This document shows positions 6,210-54,324 of a stretch of DNA of 64,000 bases, one piece after another (within the stretch, counting starts at the first letter, position 1; every line of letters begins with the position of its first letter). The notes under the pieces were generated by a model, which was not told the origin of the DNA, did not search any database, and saw only the letters and a program-made list of their open reading frames with translations. The translations under genes and the position numbers were made by a program. Origin of the DNA: Candidatus Binatia bacterium (GTDB taxonomy: Bacteria > Desulfobacterota > Binatia > UBA9968 > JAJDTQ01); contig OY729432.1 of the NCBI GenBank assembly GCA_963422385.1, positions 355,376-419,375 of the forward strand, read 5' to 3'.

Positions 6210-6689
6210 CTACAGCGATTCGCGCGCGACGGCGATGCGGCCCGTGCGAACGATCTCCTTGATGCCCATGGGCTTCAACAAGTTGATCACCGCCTGAATT
6301 TTGCCGGCGTCCCCCGACACTTCGAGGGTATAGGTCTGCGGGGTCGAGTCGACGATGTTGGCGCGGAAGATATGCGCGATCCGCATGGCCTCGTCCCGGT
6401 GGGCCTGCTTGGCCAGGATCCTTATCAGCGCCGTTTCCCGGTCGATGTGGTCCTCTTCGGTGAGGTCCACGACCTTGAGAACTTCGATGACCTTGTTGAG
6501 CTGTTTCATGATCTGCTCGATGACGTCCTCGTCACCCGAGGTCACTACCGTGATCATGGATATACTGGAATCCGGGGTCGGAGCCACGGACAGACTCTCG
6601 ATGTTGTAACCTCGTGCACTGAACAAGCCGGCCACGCGCGCAAGCACACCGGCTTTGTTCTCAACCAGAACCGAGATGATGTGTTCCAT
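6210..6689 (-). CDS. ilvN: acetolactate synthase small (regulatory) subunit
   Basis: MEHIISVLVENKAGVLARVAGLFSARGYNIESLSVAPT is the ACT domain of IlvN/IlvH. Start at ATG 6689; the longer track ORF to 7028 overlaps ilvB out of frame. Confidence 0.92.
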   Translation of the reverse strand: MEHIISVLVENKAGVLARVAGLFSARGYNIESLSVAPTPDSSISMITVVTSGDEDVIEQIMKQLNKVIEVLKVVDLTEEDHIDRETALIRILAKQAHRDEAMRIAHIFRANIVDSTPQTYTLEVSGDAGKIQAVINLLKPMGIKEIVRTGRIAVARESL

Positions 6690-6700
6690 CCGCCAAACCC

Positions 6701-31014: not shown

Positions 31015-31042
31015 TGGACAAATCCCTGCCGTTCTCTATATT
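31015..31042 (+). promoter_or_regulatory. sigma70-like promoter placed to give a leaderless or near-leaderless egtD mRNA
   Basis: TGGACA-16 nt-TATATT, with the -10 ending 6 nt before the egtD ATG (31049). No Shine-Dalgarno sequence lies in between. Confidence 0.4.
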
Positions 31043-31048
31043 GACCGG

Positions 31049-32113
31049 ATGACCTCTCAACCCACAGCGACCCACGAACCCGCAGGGATCCTCTCGATCC
31101 ACGAACGGGGTGCCTGGAGCGTCACGGATCCGACGACTCCGACCCCCGGAGAACGCTCTTCCAACGATGCCGCCGCCGGAATGGTCAAGACCCTGTTCGA
31201 CCGTCCCCGGTGGCTCGAGCCCTGTCATCTCTACGACGAAAGAGGCTCGCTGTTGTTCGAGGAGATCTGCGAGCTGCCGGAGTACTACCCGACCCGCACC
31301 GAGGCGGCCATCCTCGAACGCGAGTCCGGCACCCTCATGAGCCTGGCACCGGTGGAATGCATCGTGGAGCTTGGCGCCGGTTTCTCGAAAAAGACCATCC
31401 ACCTGCTCAAGGCGCTGACCCGGGCCCGGGGACGCGGCACCTTCGCACCGGTGGACGTTAGCGCCACCGCGCTCATGGCGTCGAAACGCATGGCCGAGGA
31501 GCTGTTCCCGGAGCTTGCGTTCACCGGACTCGAAGCCCGCTTCGAAGACGCCATCGCCAGCATCACCCGGGACATTCCGAAGCTCGTCGTGTTCCTCGGC
31601 AGCACCATCGGCAATTTCACCCCCACCGACATGCTGCACTTCTTCACGCACCTGTGCGATCACATGGGACCGGACGACTACCTCCTGCTCGGGGTGGACC
31701 GGATCAAGGATCCGGAGATCATCGAGCGCGCCTACGACGACTCCCGCGGCGTGACCGCCGCCTTCATCCTCAATGCCTTCAGCAATGTCAACCGTATCAC
31801 CGGAGCCGGCTTTCAGCCCGACAAAATCTCCTACCGAAGCGGCTACAACCGCGAACGGCAACAGGTGGAGATGTACGGAGTCAGCACCGAAACCCACCGC
31901 GTGGAGTTCCCACGGCAGTCCGCGTCGTTCACTTGGGAGAAGGACGAAGGGATACTGGTGGAGACCAGCCGCAAGTTCGACCCTGACGACCTGCAAGTAC
32001 AGCTCCGGTGTTTCGGGCTCGAGAACCTGGGGCATTGGACCGACTCGAACGAGTGGTTCTCGCTGCTGCTCTTCCGCCGGAGCGCACCATCCGGTGGACT
32101 GGAGTCGAGATGA
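31049..32113 (+). CDS. egtD: L-histidine N-alpha-methyltransferase (hercynine synthase, EgtD family)
   Basis: YDERGSLLFEEICELPEYYPTRTEAAIL, VELGAGFSKKT, VFLGSTIGNF, RAYDDSRGVTAAF, VEMYG and LVETSRKF. These blocks include the positions equivalent to the EgtD residues known to select histidine (N166, Y206, M252, E282, S284 in the mycobacterial enzyme). Confidence 0.85.
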   Translation: MTSQPTATHEPAGILSIHERGAWSVTDPTTPTPGERSSNDAAAGMVKTLFDRPRWLEPCHLYDERGSLLFEEICELPEYYPTRTEAAILERESGTLMSLAPVECIVELGAGFSKKTIHLLKALTRARGRGTFAPVDVSATALMASKRMAEELFPELAFTGLEARFEDAIASITRDIPKLVVFLGSTIGNFTPTDMLHFFTHLCDHMGPDDYLLLGVDRIKDPEIIERAYDDSRGVTAAFILNAFSNVNRITGAGFQPDKISYRSGYNRERQQVEMYGVSTETHRVEFPRQSASFTWEKDEGILVETSRKFDPDDLQVQLRCFGLENLGHWTDSNEWFSLLLFRRSAPSGGLESR

Positions 32114-33435
32114 AAAAGATCCCCGATACGACGCCCGCGTACGATCTCACCGATTCCCGGTTCTGGGACGAGAAGGACCTGCGCTCCGAGGTCGAGCGCG
32201 TCTTCCATCTGTGCTCCGAATGCCGGCTGTGCGTGAAGTTCTGCGGCAGCTTTCCGAAGCTCTTCGACGCCATCGATTCGTACTGCACCGAGGAGGAGTT
32301 CGCGGAGGTGGACTCGACCAGGCTCAGGCCGGGCGACGTGGACGAGGTGGTGGACCTGTGCTTCCAATGCAAGCTCTGCAACATCAACTGCCCGTACACT
32401 CCCGGGGACCATGACTGGGCCATCGACTTTCCGCGACTGATGGCGCGGGCCAAGGCCCAGCACGTGAGGAAGCACGGGGTCTCTCTGACGGACCGCGTGC
32501 TGGGGAACCCCGACCTGGTGGGCAAGCTCGGTTCCGCCACCGCGCCCATGGCCAACTGGGGCAATGAGAACCGGGTGCACCGCCTGTTCATGCAGGGGGC
32601 TCTGGGCATCCACAAGGACAAGAAGCTGCCGCCGTTCGCGTGGAAGACCTTCGCTTCGCGGTTCCGGTCCGAGCACCGGGAGCCCGAGGCCGAGCCGGTG
32701 GCCAGGATCGCCTACTTCGCCACCTGTTTCGTCAACTACAACGAGCCGGGCATCGGGTTGGACACCCTGGAGGTCATGGCCCGGAACCGGGTGGACGTGG
32801 CGCTCACGTACCAGGAGTGCTGCGGCATGCCGTCCTGGCACAACGGCGACATGGCCAAGGCCAAGGCGCAGGCGCAACGGAACGTCGAGTTCCTGACGCC
32901 GTTCGTGGCCGAGGGCCGGACCATCGTCGCCACCAACCCCACCTGCTCGCTGACCCTGCGCGACGAATATCCCCGACTGCTGGGAACCCAGGCCGCCCGT
33001 GACGTGGCCGGGCACACCACCGATCCCACGGCGTTCCTGGCCTCGCTTCATGCCGAGGGCAAGCTCAACCGCGACTTCAAGACCGGCCCGGGCAGGATCG
33101 CGTATCACCAGCCGTGCCACCTGCGGGCCCAGCGGCCGGGCAACAAGACCAGCGCGCTGCTGTCGCTGCTCCCCGACACCGAAGTCACCATGATACAGGC
33201 CTGCTCGGGACACGATGGCACCTGGGCCATGAAGCGGGAGAACTTCGAGGCCTCCATGCGGTGGGGCCGGCAGGCGTTCAGGGGCATCGAGGGCGTCGGC
33301 GCCGAGGTGGCCTGCTCCGACTGTCCCCTGGCCGCCATCCAGATCGAGCAGGCCACCGGGAAACATCCGCTGAACCCGTTGCAGATCCTGGCGAAGAGCT
33401 ATCGTGGGGAAGGCTTCGAGGAGGCCGGGAGCTGA
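32110..33435 (+). CDS. HdrD/GlpC-like iron-sulfur protein (two 4Fe-4S ferredoxin motifs plus two CCG-type Cys-rich domains)
   Basis: CSECRLCVKFC and CFQCKLCNINCPY (CxxCxxCxxxC twice). The first CCG domain is ATCFVN...QECCGMP and the second is PTCSLT...HQPCHLR...QACSGH. The ATG overlaps the egtD stop (ATGA). Confidence 0.75.
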   Translation: MKKIPDTTPAYDLTDSRFWDEKDLRSEVERVFHLCSECRLCVKFCGSFPKLFDAIDSYCTEEEFAEVDSTRLRPGDVDEVVDLCFQCKLCNINCPYTPGDHDWAIDFPRLMARAKAQHVRKHGVSLTDRVLGNPDLVGKLGSATAPMANWGNENRVHRLFMQGALGIHKDKKLPPFAWKTFASRFRSEHREPEAEPVARIAYFATCFVNYNEPGIGLDTLEVMARNRVDVALTYQECCGMPSWHNGDMAKAKAQAQRNVEFLTPFVAEGRTIVATNPTCSLTLRDEYPRLLGTQAARDVAGHTTDPTAFLASLHAEGKLNRDFKTGPGRIAYHQPCHLRAQRPGNKTSALLSLLPDTEVTMIQACSGHDGTWAMKRENFEASMRWGRQAFRGIEGVGAEVACSDCPLAAIQIEQATGKHPLNPLQILAKSYRGEGFEEAGS

Positions 33436-33444
33436 CGACCGCCG

Positions 33445-35448
33445 ATGAAGACCGCGAGGACGCTCATGAACGCCACCCTGATCATCGAGGAACGCGCGCC
33501 CTTTGCCGAAGGGGCCGACTTCGGTCCCGTCGGCGCCTACGAACGGATCAACGGACGCGTCCGGTTCGCCATCGACCCGCGCCACCCCGCCAACCGGCAC
33601 ATCGTGGACCTGACGCTGGCGCCCGCCGACGACCGTGGCCTGGTGGAGTATTCCACCGAGTTCTTCATCATCAAGCCCGTGGACATGAGCCGCGGCAACC
33701 GCCGCCTGCTCTACGACGTCAACAACCGCGGCAACAAGCGGGCGCTTCAATTCTTCAACGACGCCCCGCCCAACAACGACCCGCGCACCGCGCGGGACGC
33801 AGGCCACGGGTTTCTGATGCGTCGGGGCTACACTTTGGTGTGGTGCGGGTGGCAGGGGGATCTACTTCCGGGGGACGGGCGCATGACCATGGAACTGCCC
33901 GCCGCTACCGGACCGGACGGCGCCGTCACGGGACCCTTCCGGGCGGAGTTCATCAACGAGCAGCCCGGAGCAACGACCGTGTCCCTGGGCGGGCACGACT
34001 ACATCCGGCCCCGTCCATCCGTGGACCTGGACACCCGGGCAGCCACCCTCACCTGCCGGCCACTGGAGCAGGACAGCCGGCGGCCCGTCCCCGCGAGCGA
34101 CTGGCAATTCGCCGCCGTGGACGCGGCCGGCAACGTCGTGCCGTCGGCCACTAGCTGCCACCTTCCCGGCGGCTTCCGGCCCGGATGGATCTACGAGCTC
34201 ATCTACACCGCGAAGGACCCGCTGGTGCTGGGGCTGGGCTTTGCCGGGGTGCGCGACCTCATCGACTTCCTGCGCCATGCCGACGGGGATGCCGCGGGAC
34301 GGGCCAATCCGCTCCGGCAGGGGTCGCCGGGCGTCGAGAAGGCCTATGCCTGGGGTCGCTCCCAGAGCGGGCGCTTCCTGCGGGCGTTCGTCTACGAGGG
34401 GTTCAACGCCTCGGAGGGCGGCCGGCGCATCTTCGACGGCGTGTTCTCCCACGTGGCCGGAGGCGGGCGGCTTCAGCTCAACTACCGCTTCGCGCAGCCC
34501 GACCGCTACCCGCGCCAGCACGAGGACCACCTCTACCCGTCCGAGGAGTTTCCGTTTGCCTACGGCCGCGCCGAGGACCCGTTCACCGGGCGGCGGGACT
34601 CGGTCCTGAAACGCCCGGACACCGACCCCTTGGTCATCCACACCCAGACCGCCACCGAGTACTGGCAGCGGCGCGGCTCCCTGGTGCACACCGACCCCCG
34701 CGGCAACGACCTCCCGGAGCACGACAATGTCCACGTCTACCTGCTCTCCTCCCTCCAGCACAATGACGCGGCCGCTGCCCTGGAAGGCGGAGCGCCACGC
34801 TATCCGCAGAACCCGCTGCCGGCCAATCCGGTTCTCCGTGCCCTGCTGAGCGCCCTGGACGAATGGGTCACCGAGGGCGTCCCGCCCCCCGAGAGCCGCG
34901 TCCCGACGCGGTCCGGCGGCAGGCTGATCACCGGCGACGCCTTTCGGAGCGGCTTCCCGGCGGTGCCTGCCTTCGTCTGCCCCGAACCCCACGTGCTCCA
35001 TCACGTCCACCGCGGGGCGAGCTTCACCCAAGGCGTCATCACCCGCGAGCCACCGCTGGAAGACAAGACGCACGAATATGCGGTTCTGGTGCCTTCGGTG
35101 GACGCCGACGGCAACGAAAGCGCGGGCGTGCGGGTTCCGGAAGTGGCCGTCCCCCTCGCCACCTACCTGGGCTGGAACGTGCGGCGGGACTCGGAGGTCA
35201 TGGCGGGTATCGTCGGCAGCATCCTCCCCTTCGCCGAGACGGAGGAAGCGCGGGCCGCCCAGGGCGACCCGCGTCCCTCCATCGAGGCGCGTTATCGCTC
35301 CCGGGAAACATACCTGGATGCGGTCCGGGCGGCGGCGTCCTCCCTCCAGGAGGAGCGGCTGTTGCTGGCCGAGGACGTGGAGCGTTGCGTAGCCGCGGCG
35401 GGAAGCCGCTGGGACGCCCGTCCCGGGACCGGACCCAGGGGTGGATAG
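33445..35448 (+). CDS. large conserved hypothetical protein, probable alpha/beta-hydrolase-fold enzyme
   Basis: 667 aa starting 9 nt after the Fe-S gene. It has a nucleophile-elbow-like AWGRSQSGRFL and the N-terminal block FGPVGAYERINGRVRFAIDP...NRGNKRALQFFN. No signal peptide or TM segment was noticed. Confidence 0.5.
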   Translation: MKTARTLMNATLIIEERAPFAEGADFGPVGAYERINGRVRFAIDPRHPANRHIVDLTLAPADDRGLVEYSTEFFIIKPVDMSRGNRRLLYDVNNRGNKRALQFFNDAPPNNDPRTARDAGHGFLMRRGYTLVWCGWQGDLLPGDGRMTMELPAATGPDGAVTGPFRAEFINEQPGATTVSLGGHDYIRPRPSVDLDTRAATLTCRPLEQDSRRPVPASDWQFAAVDAAGNVVPSATSCHLPGGFRPGWIYELIYTAKDPLVLGLGFAGVRDLIDFLRHADGDAAGRANPLRQGSPGVEKAYAWGRSQSGRFLRAFVYEGFNASEGGRRIFDGVFSHVAGGGRLQLNYRFAQPDRYPRQHEDHLYPSEEFPFAYGRAEDPFTGRRDSVLKRPDTDPLVIHTQTATEYWQRRGSLVHTDPRGNDLPEHDNVHVYLLSSLQHNDAAAALEGGAPRYPQNPLPANPVLRALLSALDEWVTEGVPPPESRVPTRSGGRLITGDAFRSGFPAVPAFVCPEPHVLHHVHRGASFTQGVITREPPLEDKTHEYAVLVPSVDADGNESAGVRVPEVAVPLATYLGWNVRRDSEVMAGIVGSILPFAETEEARAAQGDPRPSIEARYRSRETYLDAVRAAASSLQEERLLLAEDVERCVAAAGSRWDARPGTGPRGG

Positions 35449-36603: not shown

Positions 36604-37659
36604 ATGGCTTCTTTCGAGGTGAAGGTTTACCGGATTCAGGTCGAGGAACATCCGAATGCGGATGCCTTGGAGTTGGCTCGCGTCGGTGGGTACGTGAGTC
36701 TTGTCAGGAAGGAGTCTTTTTCGACGGGAGACCTGGCGGTTTACATTCCCGAGGCGTCCGTCGTTCCCGAGGATGTGATTCAGGAGCTTGGGCTTGAGGG
36801 CCGTCTTGCCGGGAAGGCGAAGAATCGGGTGAAAACGATCAGGCTTCGCGGCATCTTGTCCCAAGGCCTGATCTACCCCGTTACGGGGAACCGCCTTCGC
36901 GGGACTTCCGTGAACGAGGGCGACGATGTGATGGAGGCCCTTGGCGTGGAGAAGTGGGAGCCTCCGATCCCGGTCCATTTGTCCGGCAAGGTGCAGAATT
37001 CTCATGGGGCGACGCTTCATTTCGACATCGAGGACATCAAGAAGCATCCGGAGGTTTTCAAGGCCGGGGAAGAGGTGGAAGTCACCGAGAAGATTCACGG
37101 GACCTGGTGTTGTCTCGGTTGGAATCGGGAGCGTGGGCCGATCGTGACGTCGAAGGGGCTATCTTCCCAAGGGCTGTCCTTCAAGGTCGAGGACCCGGAC
37201 AATGCTGACAATCTGTATGTCCGGATGTGGAAGAAGTACGGCGACCTTGTGAAGCAGCGGGCGGAGCATTGCGGTCAGTCGGTGTATATCCTGGGGGAGA
37301 TCTTCGGACGTTCGGTTCAGGATCTTCGGTACGGCGAGAAGGCACAGGCTTTCGCCGTTTTTGACGTGTACGTCGGAGACCCCGGTTCCGGCAGGTATCT
37401 GACCCGCTCCGAGGTGTTGGAGTTTATTGGCGAGGATTTTCAGATGGTTCCGGTCCTGTACCGGGGTCCGTTTGACGAAAGTCTTCTTTCGGAGTGGACT
37501 TCCGGCAAGACCCTGTGGGGCGAGGGGGTTGACCAGATTCGAGAGGGGGTCGTGATTCGGGATTGCGCCGAAGGGTCGGAACTCGAGATTGGACGGCGCA
37601 TTCTCAAGAGCGTGGCCGAGGGTTATCTTCTTCGGAAGGGAGGAACGGAGTTCAATTAG
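36604..37659 (+). CDS. ATP-dependent RNA ligase, DRB0094/Rnl5-like (N-terminal tRNA-binding-type OB fold plus nucleotidyltransferase domain)
   Basis: The N-terminus VEEHPNADALELARVGGYVSLVRKESFSTGDLAVYIPEASVVP resembles the tRNA_bind OB fold. Candidate motif I is VTEKIHGT (adenylated Lys). Later blocks are YILGEIFG, AFAVFDVYV and EGVVIRD...RRILKSV. Third codon positions are visibly T-rich and less GC-biased than in neighbouring genes. Confidence 0.6.
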   Translation: MASFEVKVYRIQVEEHPNADALELARVGGYVSLVRKESFSTGDLAVYIPEASVVPEDVIQELGLEGRLAGKAKNRVKTIRLRGILSQGLIYPVTGNRLRGTSVNEGDDVMEALGVEKWEPPIPVHLSGKVQNSHGATLHFDIEDIKKHPEVFKAGEEVEVTEKIHGTWCCLGWNRERGPIVTSKGLSSQGLSFKVEDPDNADNLYVRMWKKYGDLVKQRAEHCGQSVYILGEIFGRSVQDLRYGEKAQAFAVFDVYVGDPGSGRYLTRSEVLEFIGEDFQMVPVLYRGPFDESLLSEWTSGKTLWGEGVDQIREGVVIRDCAEGSELEIGRRILKSVAEGYLLRKGGTEFN

Positions 37660-37678
37660 GACCGCGGCCGGTTCCTCT

Positions 37679-37717
37679 TATATGTGGGTAGAAATGCCGC
37701 TATAATACCCACATATA
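37679..37717. promoter_or_regulatory. AT-rich perfect 12-bp inverted repeat (TATATGTGGGTA-15 nt-TACCCACATATA) with TATAAT in the spacer
   Basis: Read directly. It lies 20 nt after the RNA ligase stop and 23 nt before the ATPase remnant, so it could be an operator, a terminator or an element boundary. Confidence 0.35.
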
Positions 37718-37739
37718 TCAACGAGCCCTCCTTTCCCGC

Positions 37740-38785
37740 TTGTCGGGAAAACGCCGGAGCGTTCTGCTCCTCGGCCCGCGACAGGTTGGAAAATCAACCC
37801 TGCTCGCGTCCCTCAAGCCCGACCTCTCCATCAACCTTGCGAGTCCGGCCGTCTTTCGCGACTATGTTGCGCAACCCGAACGGCTGGAGCTTGAACTGCG
37901 CGCGGCCGGCCCTCGCACCCGAACCATTCTGATCGACGAGGTGCAGCGGGTTCCAGCGCCAGAAAGCTCCATCGCGGGCAGGCCAATCTGCTACCCGGGC
38001 GGGTGCATCTGCACTATCTCCATCCGCTGCTCCAGCACGAACTGGACCGGGACTTCGATCTCCAGCGCGTGCTGGCCCATGGCAGCCTCCCGGGCGTCTA
38101 CGCCGAGCCGGATCAGGCAGCGCGCGATCAGGATTTGCGCGCCTACGTGGACGCCTACCTGCGCGAAGAAATCCAGGCGGAAGCGCTGGTACGCAATCTG
38201 GGGGGCTATGCCCGGCTGCTGGACCTGACGGCGGCGGCTTCGGGGACCATCCTCAACCTCAACGCCCTGAGCCAGGACGCCGGCATCGGCCACGAAACGG
38301 CACGGCGGTACCTGGAGGTTCTCGAAGACACGCTCATCGTGTTCCGTATCCCGGGCTGGAGCGGCTCGGATCGGGCCAGTCTGCTGAACCATCCGAAGAT
38401 TTTCTTCTTCGACGTTGGGGTGCGAAACGCGCTGTTGAGACGGCATCTCGATCGCATCCTCGAAGATGAACGGGGGCTCCTGTTGGAACATTTCATCGCC
38501 CAGGAATTGTACCGCCGGACGGGAACACTCTGGCCCGAACTTGCCCTGTCGCATTACCGGACCCGACATGGCGCGGAAGTCGACTTCGTCATGGAGGTCG
38601 GTCGGGAACTCTGGGCCGTCGAGGTCACGTCATCGCGGCGGGCATCCCGGAGCGCGTTGCGAGGATTGCGGTCTTTCGCCGAGAGGGCAGGCCGTGTCCA
38701 CCGTTCCATCGTGGTTTTTCCGGGACCGCGCAGACAGCGGTTGGAGGAGGTTGAGGTCCTGCCGGTGATGGACTTCCTGGGGTGA
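37740..38785 (+). pseudogene. AAA ATPase (AAA_14 plus DUF4143 family) disrupted by an internal out-of-frame deletion
   Basis: Frame 0 reads LLLGPRQVGKSTL...ILIDEVQRVP. The sequence then continues in another frame as SARKLHRGQANLLPGRVHLHYLHPL...DUF4143-like...EVDFVMEV. The ~25 residues normally between the Walker B/VQR block and the SARKL block are missing. Confidence 0.7.
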
Positions 38786-45025: not shown

Positions 45026-46150
45026 ATGGCCAAACAAGGATTCAAGGCAATGGATTCCGATATGCATGTCTTCGAGCCTGCCGACCTCTGGGAGCGCTAC
45101 ATCGACCCGGAGTTCAAGGACCGCGCTCCCAAGGGCCTGCAACGCGATTTCCGGGATCTCGGCGTCGAGCTCGACGGCAAGATCCTTCCCGTCCCGAGGC
45201 GGCCGGAAAACCCTGCCTTGAGGGACTACCGGCTGAATACTCTCAAGGAGAAATACAGCGACGTGGCCGAGCGCAACTTCGACGGCGTCAGCCAGGTCAT
45301 GGCCATGGAGAAGGAAGGCCTGGACGTGGCCTTTCTCTTTCCCACCCGCGGACTCTTCGTCCTCGGCATCGACGGCCTCGATCCCGAGTTGGCCGCGGCC
45401 ATCTCCCGGGCCTACAACGATTGGCTCCACGACTTCGCACAGGCCGCGCCCGACCGGATGATCTGCGTCGCCATGGTGCCGCCCCAGAACGTCGAGGCGG
45501 CGGTGGCCGAGACCAGGCGCACGGTGACCGAAAAGGGTTTCCGGGGCATCTTCATGCGCCCCAACCAGACCAACGGGCTATGCTGGAGCGATCCCTACTA
45601 CGATCCCCTGTGGGACGTCTGTCAAAGCCTGGACATCCCGGTGGGCTTCCACGAAGCGGGGCGGGTCTATCAGCCGCAGCCCGCCATCTCGCAGTTCATC
45701 CCGACCTTCTCCATGTTCAACACCCTGAGCTTTCCGATGGCCAACATGTTCGCCTGCTCGGACATGATCTACGGCGGCGTGATGGAGCGCTTCCCCAAGC
45801 TGCGCGTGGCCTTTCTGGAGGGGAACTGCTCCTGGCTGCCCTGGCTCCTGTGGCGCATGGGCGACTACATGGAGTCGGTGGGCAAGGCGGAGTACCCGGA
45901 CCTCAAGCTCGAGCCCCTGGAGTATTTCCAGCGCCAGTGCTTCGGCGCCGTCGAATGCGACGAGATCACCGCCAGGCACATGCCCGAGTACGGCCTGGAG
46001 GACAACCTGGTCTTCTCCACCGACTATCCGCACCTGGACGTCAAGTATCCTCACTCGCTGGATAGTTTCCTGGAGATGCCGTTCTCCGAAGAGTCCAAGC
46101 GGAAGTACCTCTGGGACAACTGCGCCAGGCTGTACAATCTCGGTCAGTAA
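45026..46150 (+). CDS. Amidohydrolase_2 (TIM-barrel metal-dependent hydrolase/decarboxylase) family protein
   Basis: MDSDMHVFEP (metal-binding D/H-x-H), GFHEAG, and the C-terminal VFSTDYPHLD. Confidence 0.8.
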   Translation: MAKQGFKAMDSDMHVFEPADLWERYIDPEFKDRAPKGLQRDFRDLGVELDGKILPVPRRPENPALRDYRLNTLKEKYSDVAERNFDGVSQVMAMEKEGLDVAFLFPTRGLFVLGIDGLDPELAAAISRAYNDWLHDFAQAAPDRMICVAMVPPQNVEAAVAETRRTVTEKGFRGIFMRPNQTNGLCWSDPYYDPLWDVCQSLDIPVGFHEAGRVYQPQPAISQFIPTFSMFNTLSFPMANMFACSDMIYGGVMERFPKLRVAFLEGNCSWLPWLLWRMGDYMESVGKAEYPDLKLEPLEYFQRQCFGAVECDEITARHMPEYGLEDNLVFSTDYPHLDVKYPHSLDSFLEMPFSEESKRKYLWDNCARLYNLGQ

Positions 46151-46163
46151 CAGCCCGGCCTCC

Positions 46164-47306
46164 ATGCGGACTTTCGAGCGGCGGGGGATCGTCGAAGGTT
46201 TCTTCGGTCCCCCGTGGAGCATGGGCCACCGCGCGGCCATGCTCGCGTTCGGCGCGCCGCGCGGCATGAACACCTATCTCTACGCGCCCAAGGACGATCC
46301 CTACCACCGCGAGCGCTGGCAACTGCCCTACCCCGAGCCGGAGTGGCGCGCGCTCTGCCGGCTCATCGACGCCGCGCGCGGGCACGGGATCGACTTCGTC
46401 TACGGCTTTCACCCCGGCAAGGACCTCTGCTTCGCCGCCACGGAACCGGTGCGGATCCTGCTCGACAAGGCCGCCCGGCTTCATGACCGGGGCGTGCGCA
46501 CCTTCGCCGTTCTGTTCGACGACATTCCCTCTCATCTCACGGACGCCGGTGACGTGAAAAAATTCGACGGTAGCCTGGCCAGGGCAGAGTCCCTCTGGCT
46601 CCAGGCCGTGCTGGAACGGCAGCCCGCCGGCTGGGAGGTGGAGTGGTGGTTCTGTCCCTCGTACTACACCGACGATCCGCTGCTGGCCCGGGTCTTCGGC
46701 GAATTCGAGCCGGAGTTCCCGGAGACCGTGGGCCGCCATTTGCCGCCGACCGTGGACTGTTTCTGGACCGGGCCCAAAGTCGTGCCCGAGAGCATCACCT
46801 TGGCCGACGTGGAGGACATCGGAGAACGGATGGGGCACCGGCTGCTCCTGTGGGACAACTATCCGGTCAACGACCTCACCATGCGGGACGAACTGCACAT
46901 CGGGCCCCTGACCGGGCGGGACCCGCGATTGCCGGAGCGCGTCCACGCGCACCTGGCCAACCCGCTGCTGCAGGAGGATCTCAGCTTCATCCCGTTGGCC
47001 ACCTGCTTCGACTACGCCCGTGACCCCGCGGGATACGACCCGGAAAAGAGCTGGGAGGAAATCGTGGTCCGGCGGTTCGGCGCGCCGGCGCTGGAGCATT
47101 GGCGGGCGCTCCGGCGATTTTGTGAAAGCGACGCGGACGCTCCGGCAACAGTATCGGTTCCGGAGCGCGCCGCGCTCCATGCCGCTTGTGACTATCTGCT
47201 GGCTCACCGGAGCGAACGGTGGTGCCGGGAATTCGGGCCATGGCAAGAAAGACTGGAGCAAGCGCTCCGGAAGGAACATGGAAGACAGAACCGTATCCAG
47301 TCGTGA
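46164..47306 (+). CDS. GH84 family beta-N-acetylglucosaminidase (O-GlcNAcase-like) catalytic domain protein
   Basis: GIVEGFFGPPWS...MNTYLYAPKDDPYHRERWQLPYP...IDFVYGFHPG...GVRTFAVLFDDIP...WDNYPVND. It matches the GH84 signature blocks, including the catalytic Asp-Asp pair. Confidence 0.8.
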   Translation: MRTFERRGIVEGFFGPPWSMGHRAAMLAFGAPRGMNTYLYAPKDDPYHRERWQLPYPEPEWRALCRLIDAARGHGIDFVYGFHPGKDLCFAATEPVRILLDKAARLHDRGVRTFAVLFDDIPSHLTDAGDVKKFDGSLARAESLWLQAVLERQPAGWEVEWWFCPSYYTDDPLLARVFGEFEPEFPETVGRHLPPTVDCFWTGPKVVPESITLADVEDIGERMGHRLLLWDNYPVNDLTMRDELHIGPLTGRDPRLPERVHAHLANPLLQEDLSFIPLATCFDYARDPAGYDPEKSWEEIVVRRFGAPALEHWRALRRFCESDADAPATVSVPERAALHAACDYLLAHRSERWCREFGPWQERLEQALRKEHGRQNRIQS

Positions 47307-48606
47307 GGTAATGGCAACGCTGGACGAAGTCCGTTCCAGGACCCTGGGCCTGGTGCAGGATCTTTCCGACGAGCAGCTCACCGTGCCCATGCTGAACATC
47401 GTCAACCCGCCGCTCTGGGAGATCGGGCACATTGCCTGGTTTCACGAGCGATGGGCGCTGCGGCATCTGCGCGGCCACGACCCCATCATCGACAAGGGTG
47501 ACGAAATGTACGACTCCGCCGCCGTGCACCATGACACCCGGTGGGTCCTGGGGTTGCCGCCGCTGGAAGAAACCCTCGCCTACATGGAGCGCGTCCTCCA
47601 GCGCATCGCCGGGGAACTGCCCGCCGGGCGACTGAGCCCGGAAGAGACCTATTTCCACAAGCTGGGCATCTATCACGAGGACATGCACGCGGAGGCCATG
47701 ACCTATACCCGTCAGACCCTCGGTTACCCCCGGCCCCGTTTCGCCGGCGAGAGGACGGCGTTGAACGGAGGACCCTGTCCGGGCGACGTGGAGGTCCCCG
47801 GCGGCGAGTTCCTTCTCGGCGCCACCCCGGACCTCCCCTTTGTCTTCGACAACGAAAAATGGGGCCACCCGGTGATGGTGGCGCCCTACCGTATCGCCCG
47901 CACCCCGGTGACGAATGCCGAGTTCGCCGGGTTCTTGGACGACGGTGGCTACGAGGATCCAAGGTGGTGGAGCGACGACGGCTGGAACTGGCGGCAGACC
48001 GGCGGGGGACCGCATCCCGTGTACTGGAAACGGGAGTCCGGGGGACGGTGGCTGGAACGGACCTTTGGCCAATGGCTGCCGCTTCACGCCGAGCTCCCGA
48101 TCATCCACGTCAACTGGCATGAGGCCGAGGCTTACTGCCGTTGGGCCGGGCGCCGGCTGCCGACGGAGGCCGAATGGGAGATGGCGGCGGCCGTAGATCC
48201 CGCTGACGGCTCGAAGGCCGAGGCTCCCAAGCGCGGCTATCCCTGGGGCGACGCGCCCCCGGACCCCTCCAACGGCAACCTCGACTGGGCCGCGGGCGGC
48301 CGGGTGCCCGTGGACGCGCTTCCGGCGGGCGATAGCGCCGTTGGCTGCCGCCAGATGATCGGCAACATCTGGGAATGGACGGCCGACGCCTTCGGCCCCT
48401 ACCCCGGTTTCGTCCGGGACCCCTACAAGGAGTATTCGGAGCCCTGGTTCGGCGACCGCAAGGTGCTGCGCGGCGGATGCTGGGCCACCCGCTCCCATTT
48501 GATCCGGAACACGTGGCGGAACTTCTTTACGCCGGAGCGGCGGGACGTGCTCGCCGGTTTTCGCACGTGTGACCGGGAATGGACGGCAAGGAAGACCGGC
48601 GCATGA
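47278..48606 (+). CDS. senA: EgtB/SenA-type nonheme-iron C-S/C-Se bond-forming enzyme (DinB_2 plus FGE-sulfatase domains); candidate selenoneine synthase
   Basis: NPPLWEIGHIAWF and YHEDMHAEA form a 3-His iron site. The FGE-like C-domain reads YRIARTPVTNAEF...HVNWHEAEAYCRWAGRRLPTEAEWE...GNIWEWT...VLRGGCWAT. The SenA call rests on adjacency to the SenB-like gene. The start may instead be ATG 47311. Confidence 0.6.
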   Translation: MEDRTVSSREVMATLDEVRSRTLGLVQDLSDEQLTVPMLNIVNPPLWEIGHIAWFHERWALRHLRGHDPIIDKGDEMYDSAAVHHDTRWVLGLPPLEETLAYMERVLQRIAGELPAGRLSPEETYFHKLGIYHEDMHAEAMTYTRQTLGYPRPRFAGERTALNGGPCPGDVEVPGGEFLLGATPDLPFVFDNEKWGHPVMVAPYRIARTPVTNAEFAGFLDDGGYEDPRWWSDDGWNWRQTGGGPHPVYWKRESGGRWLERTFGQWLPLHAELPIIHVNWHEAEAYCRWAGRRLPTEAEWEMAAAVDPADGSKAEAPKRGYPWGDAPPDPSNGNLDWAAGGRVPVDALPAGDSAVGCRQMIGNIWEWTADAFGPYPGFVRDPYKEYSEPWFGDRKVLRGGCWATRSHLIRNTWRNFFTPERRDVLAGFRTCDREWTARKTGA

Positions 48607-48659
48607 GTACACGTACCTGTGAGGCGCGACGCTGGGCAAACGGCGTCCTTCGACCGCGC

Positions 48660-48699
48660 CTCGCTACGCTGCCCCGAGCCCGTCGAGAAGCGTAGCGAG
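48660..48699 (+). other. perfect 11-bp stem hairpin in the senA-senB spacer
   Basis: CTCGCTACGCT-18 nt-AGCGTAGCGAG, with no downstream U-tract. Confidence 0.5.
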
Positions 48700-48721
48700 C
48701 ACAGTTCAGGTCAACGCCGGA

Positions 48722-49714
48722 TTGGAAGAGGCATTGGCACAAGAGAACACCGGAACCGCCAGAATCGCCCTCGTAACCCCGGCCGGCCCCACGCGACGTA
48801 CGGGCAACCGCATCTCGGGAGGCAGGTGGGCGCGAATCCTGCGGGCCTCGGGACATCGGGTCACGGCCCTGGACCGCTACGAGCGCGAGCGCTGCGACCT
48901 GCTGATTGCGCTCCACGCGCGACGCAGCCATCCGTCCATCCAGCGGTTCCGCCGGTTGCACCCCGACAAGCCGCTGGTCGTGGTGTTGACCGGGACCGAC
49001 CTGTACCGCGACATCCACGTGGACGAGGACGCCCGGGAATCCCTGCAACTGGCCACCCGTCTGGTGGTGCTCCAACGCAAGGGCCTGGACGAGCTCGCTC
49101 CCGCGCTACACGAGAAGACACGGGTGATCTACCAGTCCGCATCCCCCTCCCTCGGCCGCCCCGGCGACCGTCACCGGCAATTCACCGTTGCGACGGTGGG
49201 CCACATGCGCTCCGAGAAGGACCCGTTCCGGACCGCCATGGCCGTGCGGTCCTTGCCGTCCTCGTCGCGGCTCCGGGTCGTGCACATCGGCGCGACTTTG
49301 AGCGAGGGCATGGCCACACGCACGGAGCGGGAGATGGAACGCAATCCCCGTTACCGGTGGCTGGGTGAACTTCCCCACTGGAAGACACGGCAACTCATGG
49401 CCCGCAGCCACATCCTTTCCATCACCTCACGCATGGAGGGCAGCTCCAATGTCTTGTGTGAGGCGTTGGCCTCCGGTGTCCCCGTGGCGGCCTCCAGAAT
49501 CTCCGGGTTGGTAGGCACCCTGGGCAACGACTATCCCGGCTACTTCGACCTCGGCGACACCGCCGGGCTCAAGCGTCTCCTGGTCCGGGCCGAGAACGAC
49601 CTGCCGTTCTACGAGAGTCTGGCCCGGCACTGTGCCGAGGTCGCGCCGCTGGTGAACCCTGAACGGGAGGTCCGGGCGTGGGAGGATCTTGTCCGCGAAT
49701 CCATGGGATCATAG
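48722..49714 (+). CDS. senB: SenB-like glycosyltransferase (TIGR04348-type); candidate selenosugar synthase
   Basis: RIALVTPAGPTRRTGNRISGGRWARILRASGHRV...DLLIALHARRSHPSIQRF...LVVVLTGTDLYRDI...LVVLQRKGL...TRVIYQSA...RMEGSSNVLCEALASGVPV. I recognise this as the EgtB-homologue-linked GT family. The start codon is uncertain (TTG 48722 or 48734). Confidence 0.55.
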   Translation: MEEALAQENTGTARIALVTPAGPTRRTGNRISGGRWARILRASGHRVTALDRYERERCDLLIALHARRSHPSIQRFRRLHPDKPLVVVLTGTDLYRDIHVDEDARESLQLATRLVVLQRKGLDELAPALHEKTRVIYQSASPSLGRPGDRHRQFTVATVGHMRSEKDPFRTAMAVRSLPSSSRLRVVHIGATLSEGMATRTEREMERNPRYRWLGELPHWKTRQLMARSHILSITSRMEGSSNVLCEALASGVPVAASRISGLVGTLGNDYPGYFDLGDTAGLKRLLVRAENDLPFYESLARHCAEVAPLVNPEREVRAWEDLVRESMGS

Positions 49715-49738
49715 GACACTACGCTGACACCACACTAG
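49712..49738. repeat. stop-to-stop spacer made of MITE-terminus-like motifs (TAGGACACTACGCTGACACCACACTAG)
   Basis: The TAG at 49712-49714 is the senB stop. The complement of 49735-49737 is the stop of the aminotransferase gene. GACACCACACTAG equals the element terminus. Confidence 0.6.
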
Positions 49739-50886
49739 GTCTCGTCGGAAAGGACCTCGATGAGCTTCTCCGCCACCGTATCCAGCTCCGCGTGACTGAT
49801 GACCAGGGGCGGCAGCAGCCGGACCACCGTCGCTCCCGCGGGTAGCGCCAGGACCCCCTTCTCCATGAGGCGCACGAGGTGGGGCTGGGACTTTTCCTTG
49901 AGCTCGATGCCGATCATCAGGCCGAGTTGACGTATGTCCCTGACCTTGGGCAGTTCCGCCGCCTTCAGACGCTCCATCAGACAGGCACCCTTCTCCGCGG
50001 CGGCCTCGGCCAACCGTTCCTCCATCATGGCGTCGATGGCGGCCAGCGACGCGGCGCACGCCAGCGGGTTGCCGCCGAAGGTGCTGCCGTGCCGGCCCAC
50101 GGGGACCTCGATCCCGTCGGAGCAGACCACCGCGCCCATGGGGATTCCGCCGGCCATGGACTTGGCCAGGCACAGGATATCGGGCTCCAGGCCGAAGTGC
50201 TCGCAGGCGAACATCTTCCCGGTGCGGCAGAAGCCGGTCTGGACCTCGTCGATGATGAGGAGGATCCCCCTCTCCCGGCACAGCTCGCTCACCTGCGCGA
50301 AGAACTCGGCCTTGCCGAGGTTCACGCCGCCTTCGCCCTGGACGATCTCGAGCATGATCGCAGCGGTGTCGTCGCCCACCTTCTCCGCCAGCTTGGCGAA
50401 GTTGTTGAACGGCGCGAACCGGAAGCCCTCTACGACGGGCGCGAAGGGCTCCCGATACTCCCGGGTGAAGGTGGCGCTCAACGCCCCCATGGTGCGGCCG
50501 TGAAAGCCGCGCATGGCGCACACCAGCTCCTGCTTGCCGGTGGTGAAGCGGGCGAACTTGATGGCCGCCTCGATGGTCTCGGCGCCGGAGTTGCACAGGA
50601 ACGCGCGGGTGAGGTTCCCGGGGGTGATGCCGGCCAAACGCTCCAGCAGCCGCGCCTTGACGTCGTTGTAGAAGACCCCGGAGCAACTCAACAAGCGCTG
50701 CGCCTGCTCGGCCACCGCTTGCACCACCTTGGGGTGGCAATGGCCCAGGTTGGCGACGCCGTGGCCGGCCACGCAATCGATGTACTCCCGGCCGGTATCG
50801 TCCCACACCCTGGCGCCCTCGCCGCGCACCAGCACCACGTCGCGCTTGGGATAGACATCGAACTCGTACTGCCGCTGCAGCTTCAT
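49735..50886 (-). CDS. lysJ: acetylornithine / [LysW]-aminoadipate-semialdehyde aminotransferase (ArgD/LysJ family, class III)
   Basis: VWDDTGREYIDCVAGHGVANLGHCHP...LIIDEVQTGFCRTGKMFA...LCLAKSMAGGIPMG. Start at ATG 50886; the 683-aa track ORF is an artefactual extension across lysZ. Confidence 0.85.
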   Translation of the reverse strand: MKLQRQYEFDVYPKRDVVLVRGEGARVWDDTGREYIDCVAGHGVANLGHCHPKVVQAVAEQAQRLLSCSGVFYNDVKARLLERLAGITPGNLTRAFLCNSGAETIEAAIKFARFTTGKQELVCAMRGFHGRTMGALSATFTREYREPFAPVVEGFRFAPFNNFAKLAEKVGDDTAAIMLEIVQGEGGVNLGKAEFFAQVSELCRERGILLIIDEVQTGFCRTGKMFACEHFGLEPDILCLAKSMAGGIPMGAVVCSDGIEVPVGRHGSTFGGNPLACAASLAAIDAMMEERLAEAAAEKGACLMERLKAAELPKVRDIRQLGLMIGIELKEKSQPHLVRLMEKGVLALPAGATVVRLLPPLVISHAELDTVAEKLIEVLSDET

Positions 50887-50894
50887 GAAGTCCG

Positions 50895-51686
50895 TCACCG
50901 AATCACCGTTCCTTTCCCCGCCAGGGCATCGCGGACCGGATGCTCCACCCGGCCGTCGCTCATGACGACCTTTTCCGTGCCTTCCTCGAAGAGCCGTCGC
51001 AGCGCCAGCATCTTGCGCTTCATGCGCCCCTCCACCTCGGCCTCCCGCTGCTCCAACTCGGCGGCGCGGATTCGGGGCACCACCGTGCTCTCGTCGTCCT
51101 TGTCGGCGAGGAAGCCGGGCGCCTCGATGAGCTGCAGCACCAGCTCGGCGTGAAAGGCGGCCTGGAGCACGTTGACGATGTCGTCGTTCTCCGAGTTGAT
51201 GGCGGTGTGGCGCTCGTCGATGATGGGGATGGAGAGCACCGGCGCGTAGCCGCCGTCGAGCAGCAACTGGAACAGCTCCTTGTTGGCCTTCCCGGGCTTG
51301 CCCGAGAAGTCCCGGACGATGAGGGTCTTGCCGTTCTTCCTCACCCGGATGCCCTTGTTGCGCCGTCCCTGGATCGCCCGGCCGTCGATGCCCGAGAGGC
51401 CCACGGCGTTGACGCCGTTCTGTTGCAGCAGCTCCACGATGCGCTTGTTCTGCACGCCCGCGTAGCCCATCAGGATGGCGTCCAGGGCGGCCTTGTCCGA
51501 CAGCACGCTGGTGTAACCCGACACCGATGTGACCACCTGGGTGGGGGTGCCGAGCCTGGCCGCGATGGCGTCGCGCACTGCGTTGGCGCCATGGACCACG
51601 ATGAACGGGTCCGACAGCGCCGCCAGGTCCTCGGCGATACCCGGGAGGTTGATGTCGCTGCCACCGCCGATCTTCACCAGGATCAT
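50895..51686 (-). CDS. lysZ: [LysW]-aminoadipate / acetylglutamate kinase
   Basis: MILVKIGGG...FIVVHGANAV... is the amino acid kinase fold of the ArgB/LysZ type. The ATG overlaps the stop of the upstream gene (ATGA). Confidence 0.8.
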   Translation of the reverse strand: MILVKIGGGSDINLPGIAEDLAALSDPFIVVHGANAVRDAIAARLGTPTQVVTSVSGYTSVLSDKAALDAILMGYAGVQNKRIVELLQQNGVNAVGLSGIDGRAIQGRRNKGIRVRKNGKTLIVRDFSGKPGKANKELFQLLLDGGYAPVLSIPIIDERHTAINSENDDIVNVLQAAFHAELVLQLIEAPGFLADKDDESTVVPRIRAAELEQREAEVEGRMKRKMLALRRLFEEGTEKVVMSDGRVEHPVRDALAGKGTVIR

Positions 51687-52321
51687 CGAAGCCGCTCCAC
51701 CGTGTCGTTGGGAATCGTGCGCCACTCCCCGTGCTCCGGCACGGTCTCGGAACTGACGGTGAACCCGTCGCTGCTCTCCCGGGCACGAAGCCTGAAATAC
51801 GCCGGGTCCTCGTTGAAGACCGACCCGACGTAGACGTTTTCCCTGTCGGCGATGATCATGTTCATGGCTCGCACGTAGCGCGTCCTTCGGACGATGATGT
51901 CCATCCCTTTTCGGATGGCCGCGGCCATGTCGCCCTTGTCGAAGCGCTTGATGTAGTTGAACACCTTCTCCGCGCCGATGCGGCCCTCCGCGGTGACGCG
52001 AACTCCCCGGAGCTCGCCGTTGAAGGCGAACACGTAGCGGTCGTCGGAAAACGGCATGTTGTTCTCCACCACGATGTTCTCATCGCGGAACGCGCTGCGC
52101 GCGTGAGCCACCAGCAGCGTCGTCGCGCCGAACTGTCCCAGGTCGTCTTCCCATACCGGCTTGATGTTCCGGTACACCTTCCACTCACCGTCCACCAGAT
52201 AGGCGCAGCCCCAGCCGTGGCCCTGGTACTCCGGGCTGTTCCGGGCGACGTCGGCCAGATGTGACAAGCGTTGGCCGATATCGAACGGTTGCTGATTCTT
52301 GACGCACAGCAAGCGGCACAT
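51683..52321 (-). CDS. class II glutamine amidotransferase-like Ntn hydrolase (YafJ/EgtC-like), stand-alone
   Basis: 212 aa starting MCRLLCV (Cys2 nucleophile after Met removal), then GHGWGCAY...LVAHARSAF...NNMPF...FAFNGEL. No synthase domain is fused. Confidence 0.7.
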   Translation of the reverse strand: MCRLLCVKNQQPFDIGQRLSHLADVARNSPEYQGHGWGCAYLVDGEWKVYRNIKPVWEDDLGQFGATTLLVAHARSAFRDENIVVENNMPFSDDRYVFAFNGELRGVRVTAEGRIGAEKVFNYIKRFDKGDMAAAIRKGMDIIVRRTRYVRAMNMIIADRENVYVGSVFNEDPAYFRLRARESSDGFTVSSETVPEHGEWRTIPNDTVERLR

Positions 52322-52341
52322 GGCGACGATACCGAAAGGCT

Positions 52342-53394
52342 CTACGCGCCCGGGTGCAGTCCCGGGAATTCGAGGCCCAGGGTCTCCTCGAAGCCGTTCA
52401 TGACGTTGAACGCCTGGACCGCCTGTCCCGAGGCGCCCTTCACGAGATTGTCCAGCGCACTGAGCACCACCAGACGATCGGAGTCCTTCTCCTTCTGGAA
52501 GCCGATGTCGCAGTAGTTGGTGCCGCTGAGCAGCTTGGGCTCGGGAAACCGGTAGATGCCGTCGGCCTCCTTGACGATACGGATGAACGGCTCTTTGCCG
52601 TAGGCCTCGCGGTAGATCTTCCACACGTCCTTCTCTTCCAGCGGCTCGCGCAGGAAGAGGTGGGCGGTGGCCAGCACGCCGCGCACCATCTCGATGGAGG
52701 TGGCGGAAAAATACACACGGATCTGCCGGCCGAAGCCCAGCTCCTGCACGATCTCCGCGCCGTGGCGATGCAAGGTGGGCATGAACGAGCGTACGGCGCC
52801 GCTGCGCTCCGGGTGATGAGAGGCGTCGCTGGCGGCGTTGCCGCCTTCGCTGGAGCCCACCTTGACCTCCACCACCGTGCGGTCCGGGTCCACCAGTCCT
52901 TTCTTGAAGAAGGGATAGACGCCGAGAATCGTCGCGGTGGCGTTGCACCCGGCGCCGGTGACGAAGCTTGCACCTCGTATCTCCTCCCGATGCAACTCGG
53001 GGATGCCGTACACGAAATCCTTCATCAGCTCCGGCCGCGCGTGCGGCTTGCCGTACCAGCGCTGGTACTCGTCCGGATCATCGAGCCGGAAGTCCGCGCT
53101 CAGGTCGATAAGCTTCGGCGCCAGCCCGCGGAGGGACTCGATGCGCTCCATCGCCTGGCCGTGAGGCAGGCAGAGAAAGAGAACGTCGCACGGCTTCAAC
53201 TCCTCCATCCGGCAGAACCGGAGCTGCGTCCGCCTGCGCAGATTGGGATGGGCCTTGAACACGAACTTCCCCGTGTAGCGCTCCGAGGTAACCTCGCACA
53301 ACTCCACCCCGGGATGCCACAGAAGCAGGCGCAGGAGCTCGCCGCCGGTGTAGCCGGACGCCCCCACGATGGAGACCTTCAGCTTCTCGGTCAC
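52342..53394 (-). CDS. lysY: [LysW]-aminoadipate 6-phosphate / N-acetyl-gamma-glutamyl-phosphate reductase
   Basis: VSIVGASGYTGGELLRLL...VTGAGCNATA (active-site Cys)...LVKGASGQAVQAFN. GTG start at 53394. Confidence 0.88.
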   Translation of the reverse strand: MTEKLKVSIVGASGYTGGELLRLLLWHPGVELCEVTSERYTGKFVFKAHPNLRRRTQLRFCRMEELKPCDVLFLCLPHGQAMERIESLRGLAPKLIDLSADFRLDDPDEYQRWYGKPHARPELMKDFVYGIPELHREEIRGASFVTGAGCNATATILGVYPFFKKGLVDPDRTVVEVKVGSSEGGNAASDASHHPERSGAVRSFMPTLHRHGAEIVQELGFGRQIRVYFSATSIEMVRGVLATAHLFLREPLEEKDVWKIYREAYGKEPFIRIVKEADGIYRFPEPKLLSGTNYCDIGFQKEKDSDRLVVLSALDNLVKGASGQAVQAFNVMNGFEETLGLEFPGLHPGA

Positions 53395-53451
53395 GGCTTG
53401 TGCCTCCCCTTCCCGTCCAGGTCGATGATCCGGGTCACGTCCGCCGGCCCC

Positions 53452-54324
53452 TCAGGCCGCACCCTTCCGTTCCCGTTCCGCCCGCCCCACCCGAAGCACA
53501 TGCTCGACGATCAGGCCGGGGATGTTCACCCCGGTGGTGTCGATGCTGTTCCGGAACTCCATGGTGTAGTTCACCTCGTTGACCAGCAGGCCCTCGGGGG
53601 TCTCGAAAAGGTCCACGGCGACGATGCCGCCTCCCACCGCGCGGCACGCCCGGACCGAGAGGTCCCGAAGCTCGTCCGTCACCGGACAGTTCCCGGCGCG
53701 CCCGCCCCGGGCCGTGTTGGTGATCCAGTGGTCGCTGTAACGGTAGATGGCGGCCACGCATTCGTCACCGATGACGAAGCTCCGGATGTCGCGCCCGGTC
53801 TTCTCGACGTATTGCTGAATGTAGAAGATGGAGTGGTGGTAGGAGCCGAGGATCGCCTTGTGCTCCAGGATCGACTCCGCCGCGTCCCGATCGTTGATCC
53901 TGGCGAGGAGCCGGCCCCAGGAGCCCACGGCGGGCTTGAGCACCACGGGATAGCCCATCTCCTCGATGGCCTCCAGGGTGGATTCCTCGGTAAAGGCGAT
54001 GCGCACCTCGGGCTGGGGCACCCCACCATCCTGCAACTGCACCGAGGTGAGGATCTTGTCGCCGCACACGCCTGCCACCGACGACGAGTTGACGCAGCGC
54101 ACGCCGGCGCTTTCGAACAGCCGCAGACCGTGCAGCGCCCGGGAGTGATTGATGCACCGCTCCAGCAGCACGTCCAGGTCGTATCGGTCCTTGCCCAGGT
54201 TGAACGACAATCGCCGGTCGTCGATCATCCGGAGCTCCACGCCGGGCCGTTGCCTGATCTCCTTGATCAGGAGCTTCTCCTCGGGCCGGACCAGTGAATG
54301 CAGCAAACCGATCTTCAAGCTCAT
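53452..54324 (-). CDS. lysX: RimK/LysX-type ATP-grasp ligase (alpha-aminoadipate--LysW ligase)
   Basis: [20 protein letters not shown]...[11 protein letters not shown]...[19 protein letters not shown]. The ATG overlaps the lysW stop (ATGA). Confidence 0.85.

Follow-up and report, generated by a model that had tools for sequence, protein, structure and literature searches.

Overlapping genes for a hercynine synthase and a probable RFO-family iron-sulfur protein: a lineage-specific arrangement in one clade of Candidatus Binatia

Introduction

Among the closest described counterparts of the locus reported here is the selenoneine (sen) cluster, SenA/SenB/SenC (Kayrouz et al. 2022). In this pathway, SenA couples hercynine, supplied by EgtD, to a selenosugar, and egtD is found in some of the sen clusters (bioRxiv 10.1101/2022.04.13.486033). 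The final step toward selenoneine was left to 'reduction or disproportionation', with dithiothreitol (DTT) supplied in vitro (bioRxiv 10.1101/2022.04.13.486033). Here we analyse a 64,000-nucleotide stretch of a Candidatus Binatia genome (contig OY729432.1, positions 355,376 to 419,375; hereafter the window), in which egtD overlaps the gene of an iron-sulfur (Fe-S) protein. The window resembles the published cluster in that its senA and senB score above the respective cut-offs and share strand and region with egtD. It differs in that egtD stands ~13 kb from senAB, that the window yielded no SelD/SenC gene, LysW-pathway genes lying 3' of senB instead, and that a glycoside hydrolase family 84 (GH84)-like gene and an amidohydrolase gene precede senA.

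The Fe-S protein contains CCG domains, a family that includes disulfide reductases along with electron-transfer enzymes and enzymes linked to quinones. In HdrB, the CCG motifs (Cx31-39CCx35-36CxxC, five cysteines each) bind noncubane 4Fe-4S clusters. Closest to the window protein are the rubrerythrin-associated Fe-S oxidoreductases (RFOs), a family named in 2016 (PMC5114695). We put the probability at roughly 0.6 that egtD and the Fe-S gene form a lineage-specific co-expressed pair, in which EgtD would serve SenA and the Fe-S protein would be an ordinary RFO, the two having no substrate in common.

The egtD/Fe-S gene pair and its conservation

An earlier note on this DNA, made from its letters alone, had described egtD, the Fe-S gene and a hydrolase-like gene in a row, and all three open reading frames (ORFs) are indeed present where it placed them (Table 1). 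EgtD matches Pfam PF10017 (Methyltransf_33) with E = 3e-89 and aligns to the M. smegmatis EgtD structures 4uy7/4pim with E = 7e-52; on the curated equivalog model TIGR03438 it reaches 287.0 bits, slightly under the cut-off of 290.9. The blocks YYPTR, GSTIGN, AYDD, GVTAAF, VEM and ETS are all kept relative to 4uy7/4pim, and the histidine-binding residues of the M. smegmatis enzyme, which we used as reference (Y56, N166, Y206, T213, M252, E282 and S284), have their counterparts on the Methyltransf_33 fold of the window protein. Judged by these residues, whose retention the earlier note had also recognized, the window EgtD is very probably histidine-specific. A promoter-like match lies directly 5' of the gene. 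The junction sequence, GGAGTCGAGATGAAA, confirms the proposed overlap of the egtD stop codon with the start codon of the Fe-S gene: the TGA of egtD occupies 32111-32113, the ATG of the Fe-S gene begins at 32110, and a GGAG precedes this ATG by 6 nt.

Table 1. Positions of the principal features in the window
Feature	Position	Strand	Basis or remark
Sigma-70-like promoter match, putative and weak	31015..31042	+	TGGACA, 16 nt spacer, TATATT; single consensus match, 10/12 positions
egtD, predicted L-histidine N-alpha-methyltransferase (hercynine synthase), 354 aa	31049..32113	+	Pfam, PDB alignment
ATGA stop/start overlap of egtD and the Fe-S gene	32110..32113	+	GGAG at 32101-32104
Gene of GlpC-like, probable RFO-family Fe-S protein, 441 aa	32110..33435	+	two CxxCxxCxxxC, two CCG domains
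Gene of Abhydrolase_10 (PF20091) protein	33445..35448	+	probable true start 33466, 660 aa; syntenic neighbour
Gene of GH84-like beta-N-acetylglucosaminidase, directly 5' of senA	46164..47306	+	Pfam NAGidase, E = 2e-80
senA, predicted selenoneine synthase	47278..48606	+	NF041186; alternative start 47311
senB, predicted selenosugar (SeGlcNAc) synthase	48722..49714	+	TIGR04348

A scan for the Fe-S protein at one genome per species yielded 78 loci (fetched loci are labelled by L-numbers below, with positions counted within each locus). The nearest relatives of the window are species-level Candidatus Binatia metagenome-assembled genomes. Among them, the egtD-linked clade comprises 30 loci, about 27 of which are species representatives, with Fe-S proteins at least 80% identical; every genome carrying such a protein has egtD directly upstream of its gene. 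Stop and start codons overlap by 4 nt in 26 of these loci and by 1 nt in three, and are separated by a 27-nt gap in one, while the GGAG is retained in most. As 29 of the 30 loci share the overlap, it is more than a chance arrangement. Moreover, EgtD identity within this set goes down to 59%, so the clade is not a shallow one.

Outside this clade we did not find the association. In the 51 more distantly related RFO loci used for comparison, egtD is never within 6 kb of the RFO gene. Non-clade Binatia carry an egtD (53-57% identical) in the same synteny, SLT...ABH10...AcrB, without the Fe-S gene, a major facilitator superfamily (MFS) transporter gene or other genes following it. Finally, in 80 senA loci retrieved from metagenomes with a SenA query there is no RFO/GlpC homologue, Abhydrolase_10, rubrerythrin or DUF3501. 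Since the link is confined to the clade in all three comparisons, the egtD/RFO association arose a single time, with no independent replicate. The components of the arrangement all come from known families, and the arrangement itself, seen in one clade only, is new to the literature searched; in keeping with the earlier note, a search on EgtD combined with heterodisulfide reductase or Fe-S oxidoreductase returned no described pathway joining the two.

Family assignment of the Fe-S protein

The Fe-S protein has two ferredoxin motifs (C35xxC38xxC41xxxC45 and C84xxC87xxC90xxxC94) and two Pfam CCG domains (E = 5e-18), a COG0247-type composition that agrees with the earlier description; no membrane segments are predicted. 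Its CCG motifs, C206...C237C238...C279 and C336...C365...C402xxC405, hold four cysteines each, as in E. coli GlpC and in contrast to the five of HdrD/HdrB, and there is no HdrE-type or other membrane partner nearby. Owing to this 4+4 rather than 5+5 pattern, the noncubane-cluster disulfide chemistry that had been suggested for the protein is an unsupported extrapolation.

Confidence in the AlphaFold model is limited to the CCG half, residues ~180-435. For this half, Foldseek gave matches to LutA (E = 5e-9, TM 0.79), to mycobacterial EtfD (5e-5) and to HdrB (8rwn_B and 5odc_B, E = 1e-5 to 7e-5, target-normalised TM ~0.6). Thus, a double-CCG fold like that of HdrD/HdrB, LutA and EtfD is predicted for the C-terminal half, and a GlpC/HdrD-type architecture, as proposed earlier, seems well founded. 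The sequence search against PDB gave no matches.

As to the family, homologues 41-72% identical to the window protein adjoin rubrerythrin, DUF3501 or another di-iron protein, and never egtD. In Acidobacteria and Proteobacteria (41-47% identity) the gene order is rubrerythrin, Fe-S protein, DUF3501; at 66% identity, rubrerythrin stands immediately 5' of one homologue, with FUR and OsmC nearby, and at 64-68% identity the gene converges, tail to tail, with that of a PF14518 haem-oxygenase-like (CADD-like) di-iron protein. In a neighbour-joining tree, which is coarse and includes one true GlpC, the window protein falls with the rubrerythrin-linked proteins, away from E. coli GlpC, and within the Binatia RFO group all egtD-linked proteins fall into one nested clade. 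Between the egtD-linked and the remaining Binatia RFOs, 190 positions are fixed for the same residue, and 15 of 441 are fixed for different residues, none of these 15 being a cysteine. The window protein shares with RFOs the two 4Fe-4S ferredoxin motifs, the two CCG domains and the length of ~440 aa; it differs in the translational coupling of its gene to egtD, in its surroundings, which lack the aerobic-type rubrerythrin and the DUF3501 gene over 64 kb, and in two additional cysteines, C59 and C402, which characterize Binatia-type members. On these sequence grounds, an ordinary Binatia RFO is the best-supported identity. The earlier note had named clustering with an unrelated described family as a sign against its proposal, and this applies in part, as the protein groups with the RFOs (PMC5114695).

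PF14518 represents a second di-iron context for RFOs besides rubrerythrin. It is found in L030-L034, L037, L038 and L046 (in L033 at ~7330-8100), with a NUDIX gene and a pyridine-nucleotide disulfide oxidoreductase gene nearby.

Selenoneine genes in the window

The ORF of senA extends over 47020-48606, the real start being 47278 or 47311, and its product combines DinB_2 and FGE-sulfatase domains. Its score on NF041186 is 518 bits (cut-off 420), and on the EgtB model TIGR03440 it reaches 345 bits, below the cut-off of 360. SenB scores 396 bits on TIGR04348 (cut-off 300) and matches the SenB structures in PDB with E = 1e-61. Since OvsA, of the ovoselenol pathway, is the best PDB match of the senA product, we considered whether the gene might encode OvsA. 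The two enzymes differ in their substrate residues, Y/N/F in SenA and M/Q/A in OvsA, and in the motif YYN(F/Y)(F/Y)R as opposed to YMQAYR (PMC11030361). The window protein has the Y in KEYSEPW and NFF in WRNFFTPERR, as does V. paradoxus SenA, that is, the hercynine-type Y/N/F, whereas wild-type OvsA has M and QA at the same positions. We therefore rejected OvsA; its top score is explained by an insert of ~50 aa that V. paradoxus SenA lacks.

Both sen genes lie ~13.8 kb downstream of the egtD/Fe-S pair on the same strand, with unrelated genes between. In other words, a hercynine-consuming enzyme, SenA, is encoded in the same genome as EgtD, and with SenA and SenB in the window egtD most simply serves selenoneine synthesis. 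Consequently, the remark in the earlier note that no known partner of EgtD is adjacent is literally true but misleading at the scale of the window. These Binatia are predicted to be selenoneine producers. Among the 80 metagenomic senA loci, SenB was found in 60, egtD in 16 and selD in 6.

In one clade member, L176, the 10 kb that follow the hydrolase gene contain no sen gene. The egtD/Fe-S pair can therefore persist without sen genes at the locus, which weakens a strict functional tie, though the sen genes of L176 could be located elsewhere in its genome. In another clade member, L027, the amidohydrolase gene of the window sen order comes only ~2 kb after the small alpha/beta hydrolase, and in L174, a Binatia genome outside the clade, a fragment of this gene is found behind the efflux pump, where the gene also stands in the window.

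The gene order at 45026-49714 (+) of the window is Amidohydro_2, GH84-like beta-N-acetylglucosaminidase, senA, senB. The GH84-like gene is recurrent beside senA, standing directly 5' of it in 13 of the 80 metagenomic loci, and a literature search on this neighbourhood found no paper. The enzyme may process Se-GlcNAc conjugates, for example a hercynyl-SeGlcNAc selenoether shunt product. Four metagenomic sen loci (L102, L120, L121 and L124) have a betaine-type ATP-binding cassette (ABC) transporter, consisting of a fused permease and binding protein and a ProV-like ATPase, divergent from egtD; they continue with a LysE-type exporter, GH84, senA, senB and an AmpG-like MFS transporter. In L174, which lacks the Fe-S gene, an AIRS/AIRS_C protein (1946-2956) is encoded 1 kb downstream of egtD. 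It is below cut-off on the HypE, ThiL and SelD models and ambiguous; it could be a divergent SenC.

The hydrolase gene downstream of the pair

The third gene encodes an Abhydrolase_10 protein (PF20091, E = 2e-42, 146 bits against a gathering cut-off of 23). The nucleophile-elbow-like GRSQSG that had been pointed out is present and lies within an invariant block, W303 G304 S306 S308 G309 R310, with S306 invariant in 31 homologues. The earlier figures of 667 aa and a 9-nt gap after the Fe-S gene need correction to 660 aa and 30 nt: homologues begin with MNITL... and are 659-660 aa long, and GAGGA stands 6 nt 5' of the ATG at 33466, which is for these reasons the likelier start.

We do not count the hydrolase as part of the conserved pair; it is a syntenic neighbour. 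It begins anywhere between 1 nt and 5.4 kb after the Fe-S gene, and in about 12 genomes 1.2-5.4 kb of transporter or toxin-antitoxin genes intervene. In eight relatives (L006, L007, L010, L019, L021-L023 and L035) these are genes of an ABC substrate-binding protein of 360 aa and a fused double permease of 584 aa (for example L019:7430-10345), whose NCBIfam matches are all below cut-off; L009 retains only a permease fragment of ~100 aa (7351-7656). As relatives still carry the ABC genes at this place, the tight spacing in the window goes back to a secondary deletion of the ABC pair. In L089, unrelated genes and no hydrolase follow the egtD/Fe-S pair, and Abhydrolase_10 keeps this synteny in one Binatia genome that has no Fe-S gene and stands among unrelated neighbours elsewhere. 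We therefore rejected a conserved unit of three genes. Of the linkage proposed in the earlier note, the egtD/Fe-S overlap holds beyond this genome and the attachment of the hydrolase does not. The hydrolase sequence had no matches in PDB, and its model (predicted local distance difference test score, pLDDT, 80) matches folds of carbohydrate esterases weakly (E > 0.004), giving no functional lead.

Possible roles of the pair

If the pair is one of co-expression, EgtD would trimethylate histidine, and the hercynine would feed SenA together with the selenosugar made by SenB. The Fe-S protein, with its two ferredoxin-type clusters and two CCG domains, would be an RFO; in other lineages, RFOs are encoded beside di-iron proteins of peroxide defence and presumably pass electrons to these. 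In the ancestor of the clade, an RFO gene would have been placed directly behind egtD and coupled to it translationally; we infer that the two genes are also co-transcribed. Because of the translational coupling, EgtD and the Fe-S protein would be made together, so that the supply of an antioxidant precursor and a reductase of redox proteins, two oxidative-stress functions without a common substrate, would be expressed jointly. Such co-expression is plausible, and might be useful, because both functions belong to oxidative-stress defence.

Several points weigh against this interpretation. Rubrerythrin and DUF3501 are absent from the 64-kb window, and from the 30 clade loci as well, and we know of no experimental test of RFO function. 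The reduction of selenenic acid to selenol in selenoneine synthesis has no assigned enzyme, and a CCG protein could fill this place. In addition, the overlap has survived rearrangement of both flanks, namely the insertion of a glutathione-dependent formaldehyde-activating-like (GFA) gene upstream and gains and losses of ABC, toxin-antitoxin and SulP genes downstream, which could mean selection for joint expression beyond plain co-regulation.

It is tempting to ask whether egtD and the Fe-S gene are a functional pair, with the Fe-S protein acting at its CCG clusters on hercynine-derived chalcogen compounds such as hercynyl selenenic acid, selenoneine diselenide or seleninic acid, or ergothioneine disulfide. 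The persistence of the coupling in 29 of 30 loci despite the rearranged flanks would fit this idea, as would the disulfide reduction carried out by the CCG relatives HdrB and HdrD (the HdrB fold match having E = 1e-5), the DTT-assisted 'reduction or disproportionation' that ends the published pathway, and the absence of a selenoneine reductase from the literature searched. However, the association has a single evolutionary origin, the link is missing from all 80 other senA loci and all 51 other RFO loci, and L176 keeps the pair with no sen genes in the 10 kb beyond its hydrolase gene. The Fe-S protein itself bears no sequence sign of a changed function, considering its few fixed differences and unaltered cysteines, and its four cysteines per CCG motif resemble quinone-linked GlpC and not HdrB. 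We consider such a functional pair unlikely, although worth keeping in mind. In its most specific form, the egtD-coupled RFO would be the missing selenoneine reductase, returning hercynyl selenenic acid or oxidised selenoneine to the selenol; this we regard as rather improbable. The reduction of selenoneine intermediates, raised in the earlier note, is accordingly possible but has no independent support. The same note had also thought of the three genes as one route, for an oxygen-independent insertion of sulfur or selenium into hercynine or for betaine catabolism. In the window the genes do share a strand and are separated by short gaps, and the trio stays together in most clade genomes, but the hydrolase is 1.2-5.4 kb off in about 12 genomes, does not follow the Fe-S gene in L089 and holds its place in Binatia without the Fe-S gene. 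Furthermore, no rhodanese, cysteine desulfurase or radical SAM domain is encoded beside the pair, and the O2-dependent SenA route already present in the window makes an oxygen-independent insertion unnecessary, so that a three-gene route is very improbable.

Automatic annotation would call the Fe-S protein a true GlpC, subunit C of anaerobic glycerol-3-phosphate dehydrogenase. It passes NF008369 (PRK11168 GlpC) with 297 bits against a cut-off of 278, several database homologues bear this name, and domain order and the pattern of 15 of 17 cysteines are those of E. coli GlpC (of GlpABC). Nevertheless, the identity to E. coli GlpC is 31%, the protein fails TIGR03379 (GlpC; 225 bits, cut-off 280), and tblastn with E. 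coli GlpA and GlpB found no match in the window or in the ~170 fetched loci. Since rubrerythrin-linked homologues pass NF008369 too, the match to this model is not specific for GlpC. We thus rejected a true GlpC as hardly credible, and a lineage-specific co-expressed pair of EgtD and an ordinary RFO remains our preferred explanation.

If the coupling means co-expression only, its value is mainly corrective: the 'GlpC' annotation is wrong, and the egtD neighbourhood contains no new pathway. If, on the other hand, the RFO did act on redox states of selenoneine or ergothioneine, it would be the first bacterial enzyme known to recycle these antioxidants and would provide the widespread RFO family with a first function and substrate. 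The sen pathway would gain an enzyme for its unassigned reduction, and selenoneine would become a catalytic peroxide scavenger.

In any case, the name GlpC is unreliable for RFO proteins. NF008369 is passed or nearly passed by RFOs without glpAB, both rubrerythrin-linked and stand-alone ones, as seen for those of the window (32110-33435), L043:5872-7266, L033:5989-7290 and L057:6001-7047. Therefore, the name 'anaerobic glycerol-3-phosphate dehydrogenase subunit C' is probably wrong for many of the database entries that bear it.

Other genes of the locus and its relatives

The region has a housekeeping setting, with tol-pal genes, pgk, tpi and a tetratricopeptide repeat (TPR) lytic transglycosylase upstream and a resistance-nodulation-division (RND) efflux pump downstream. 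In L001, a 93% relative, the GFA gene (6278-6754) is inserted between the transglycosylase and egtD, and a split SulP/STAS anion transporter (11352-12718) is located 3' of Abhydrolase_10. Putative selenate transporters have been noted near some sen clusters (bioRxiv 10.1101/2022.04.13.486033).

Between the small alpha/beta hydrolase gene and cinA, the window encodes a DRB0094-family RNA ligase (TIGR02306, 236 bits) and a DUF4143 protein (36604-38785, +), a pair whose presence and position vary across the genomes of the clade. On the opposite strand, 49735-54324 (-) holds a LysW-pathway-like run of a class III aminotransferase, an amino-acid kinase, a semialdehyde dehydrogenase and a RimK/LysX ATP-grasp protein. 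Beyond this run in the window there are a second aminotransferase, an amidohydrolase and an aldehyde dehydrogenase.

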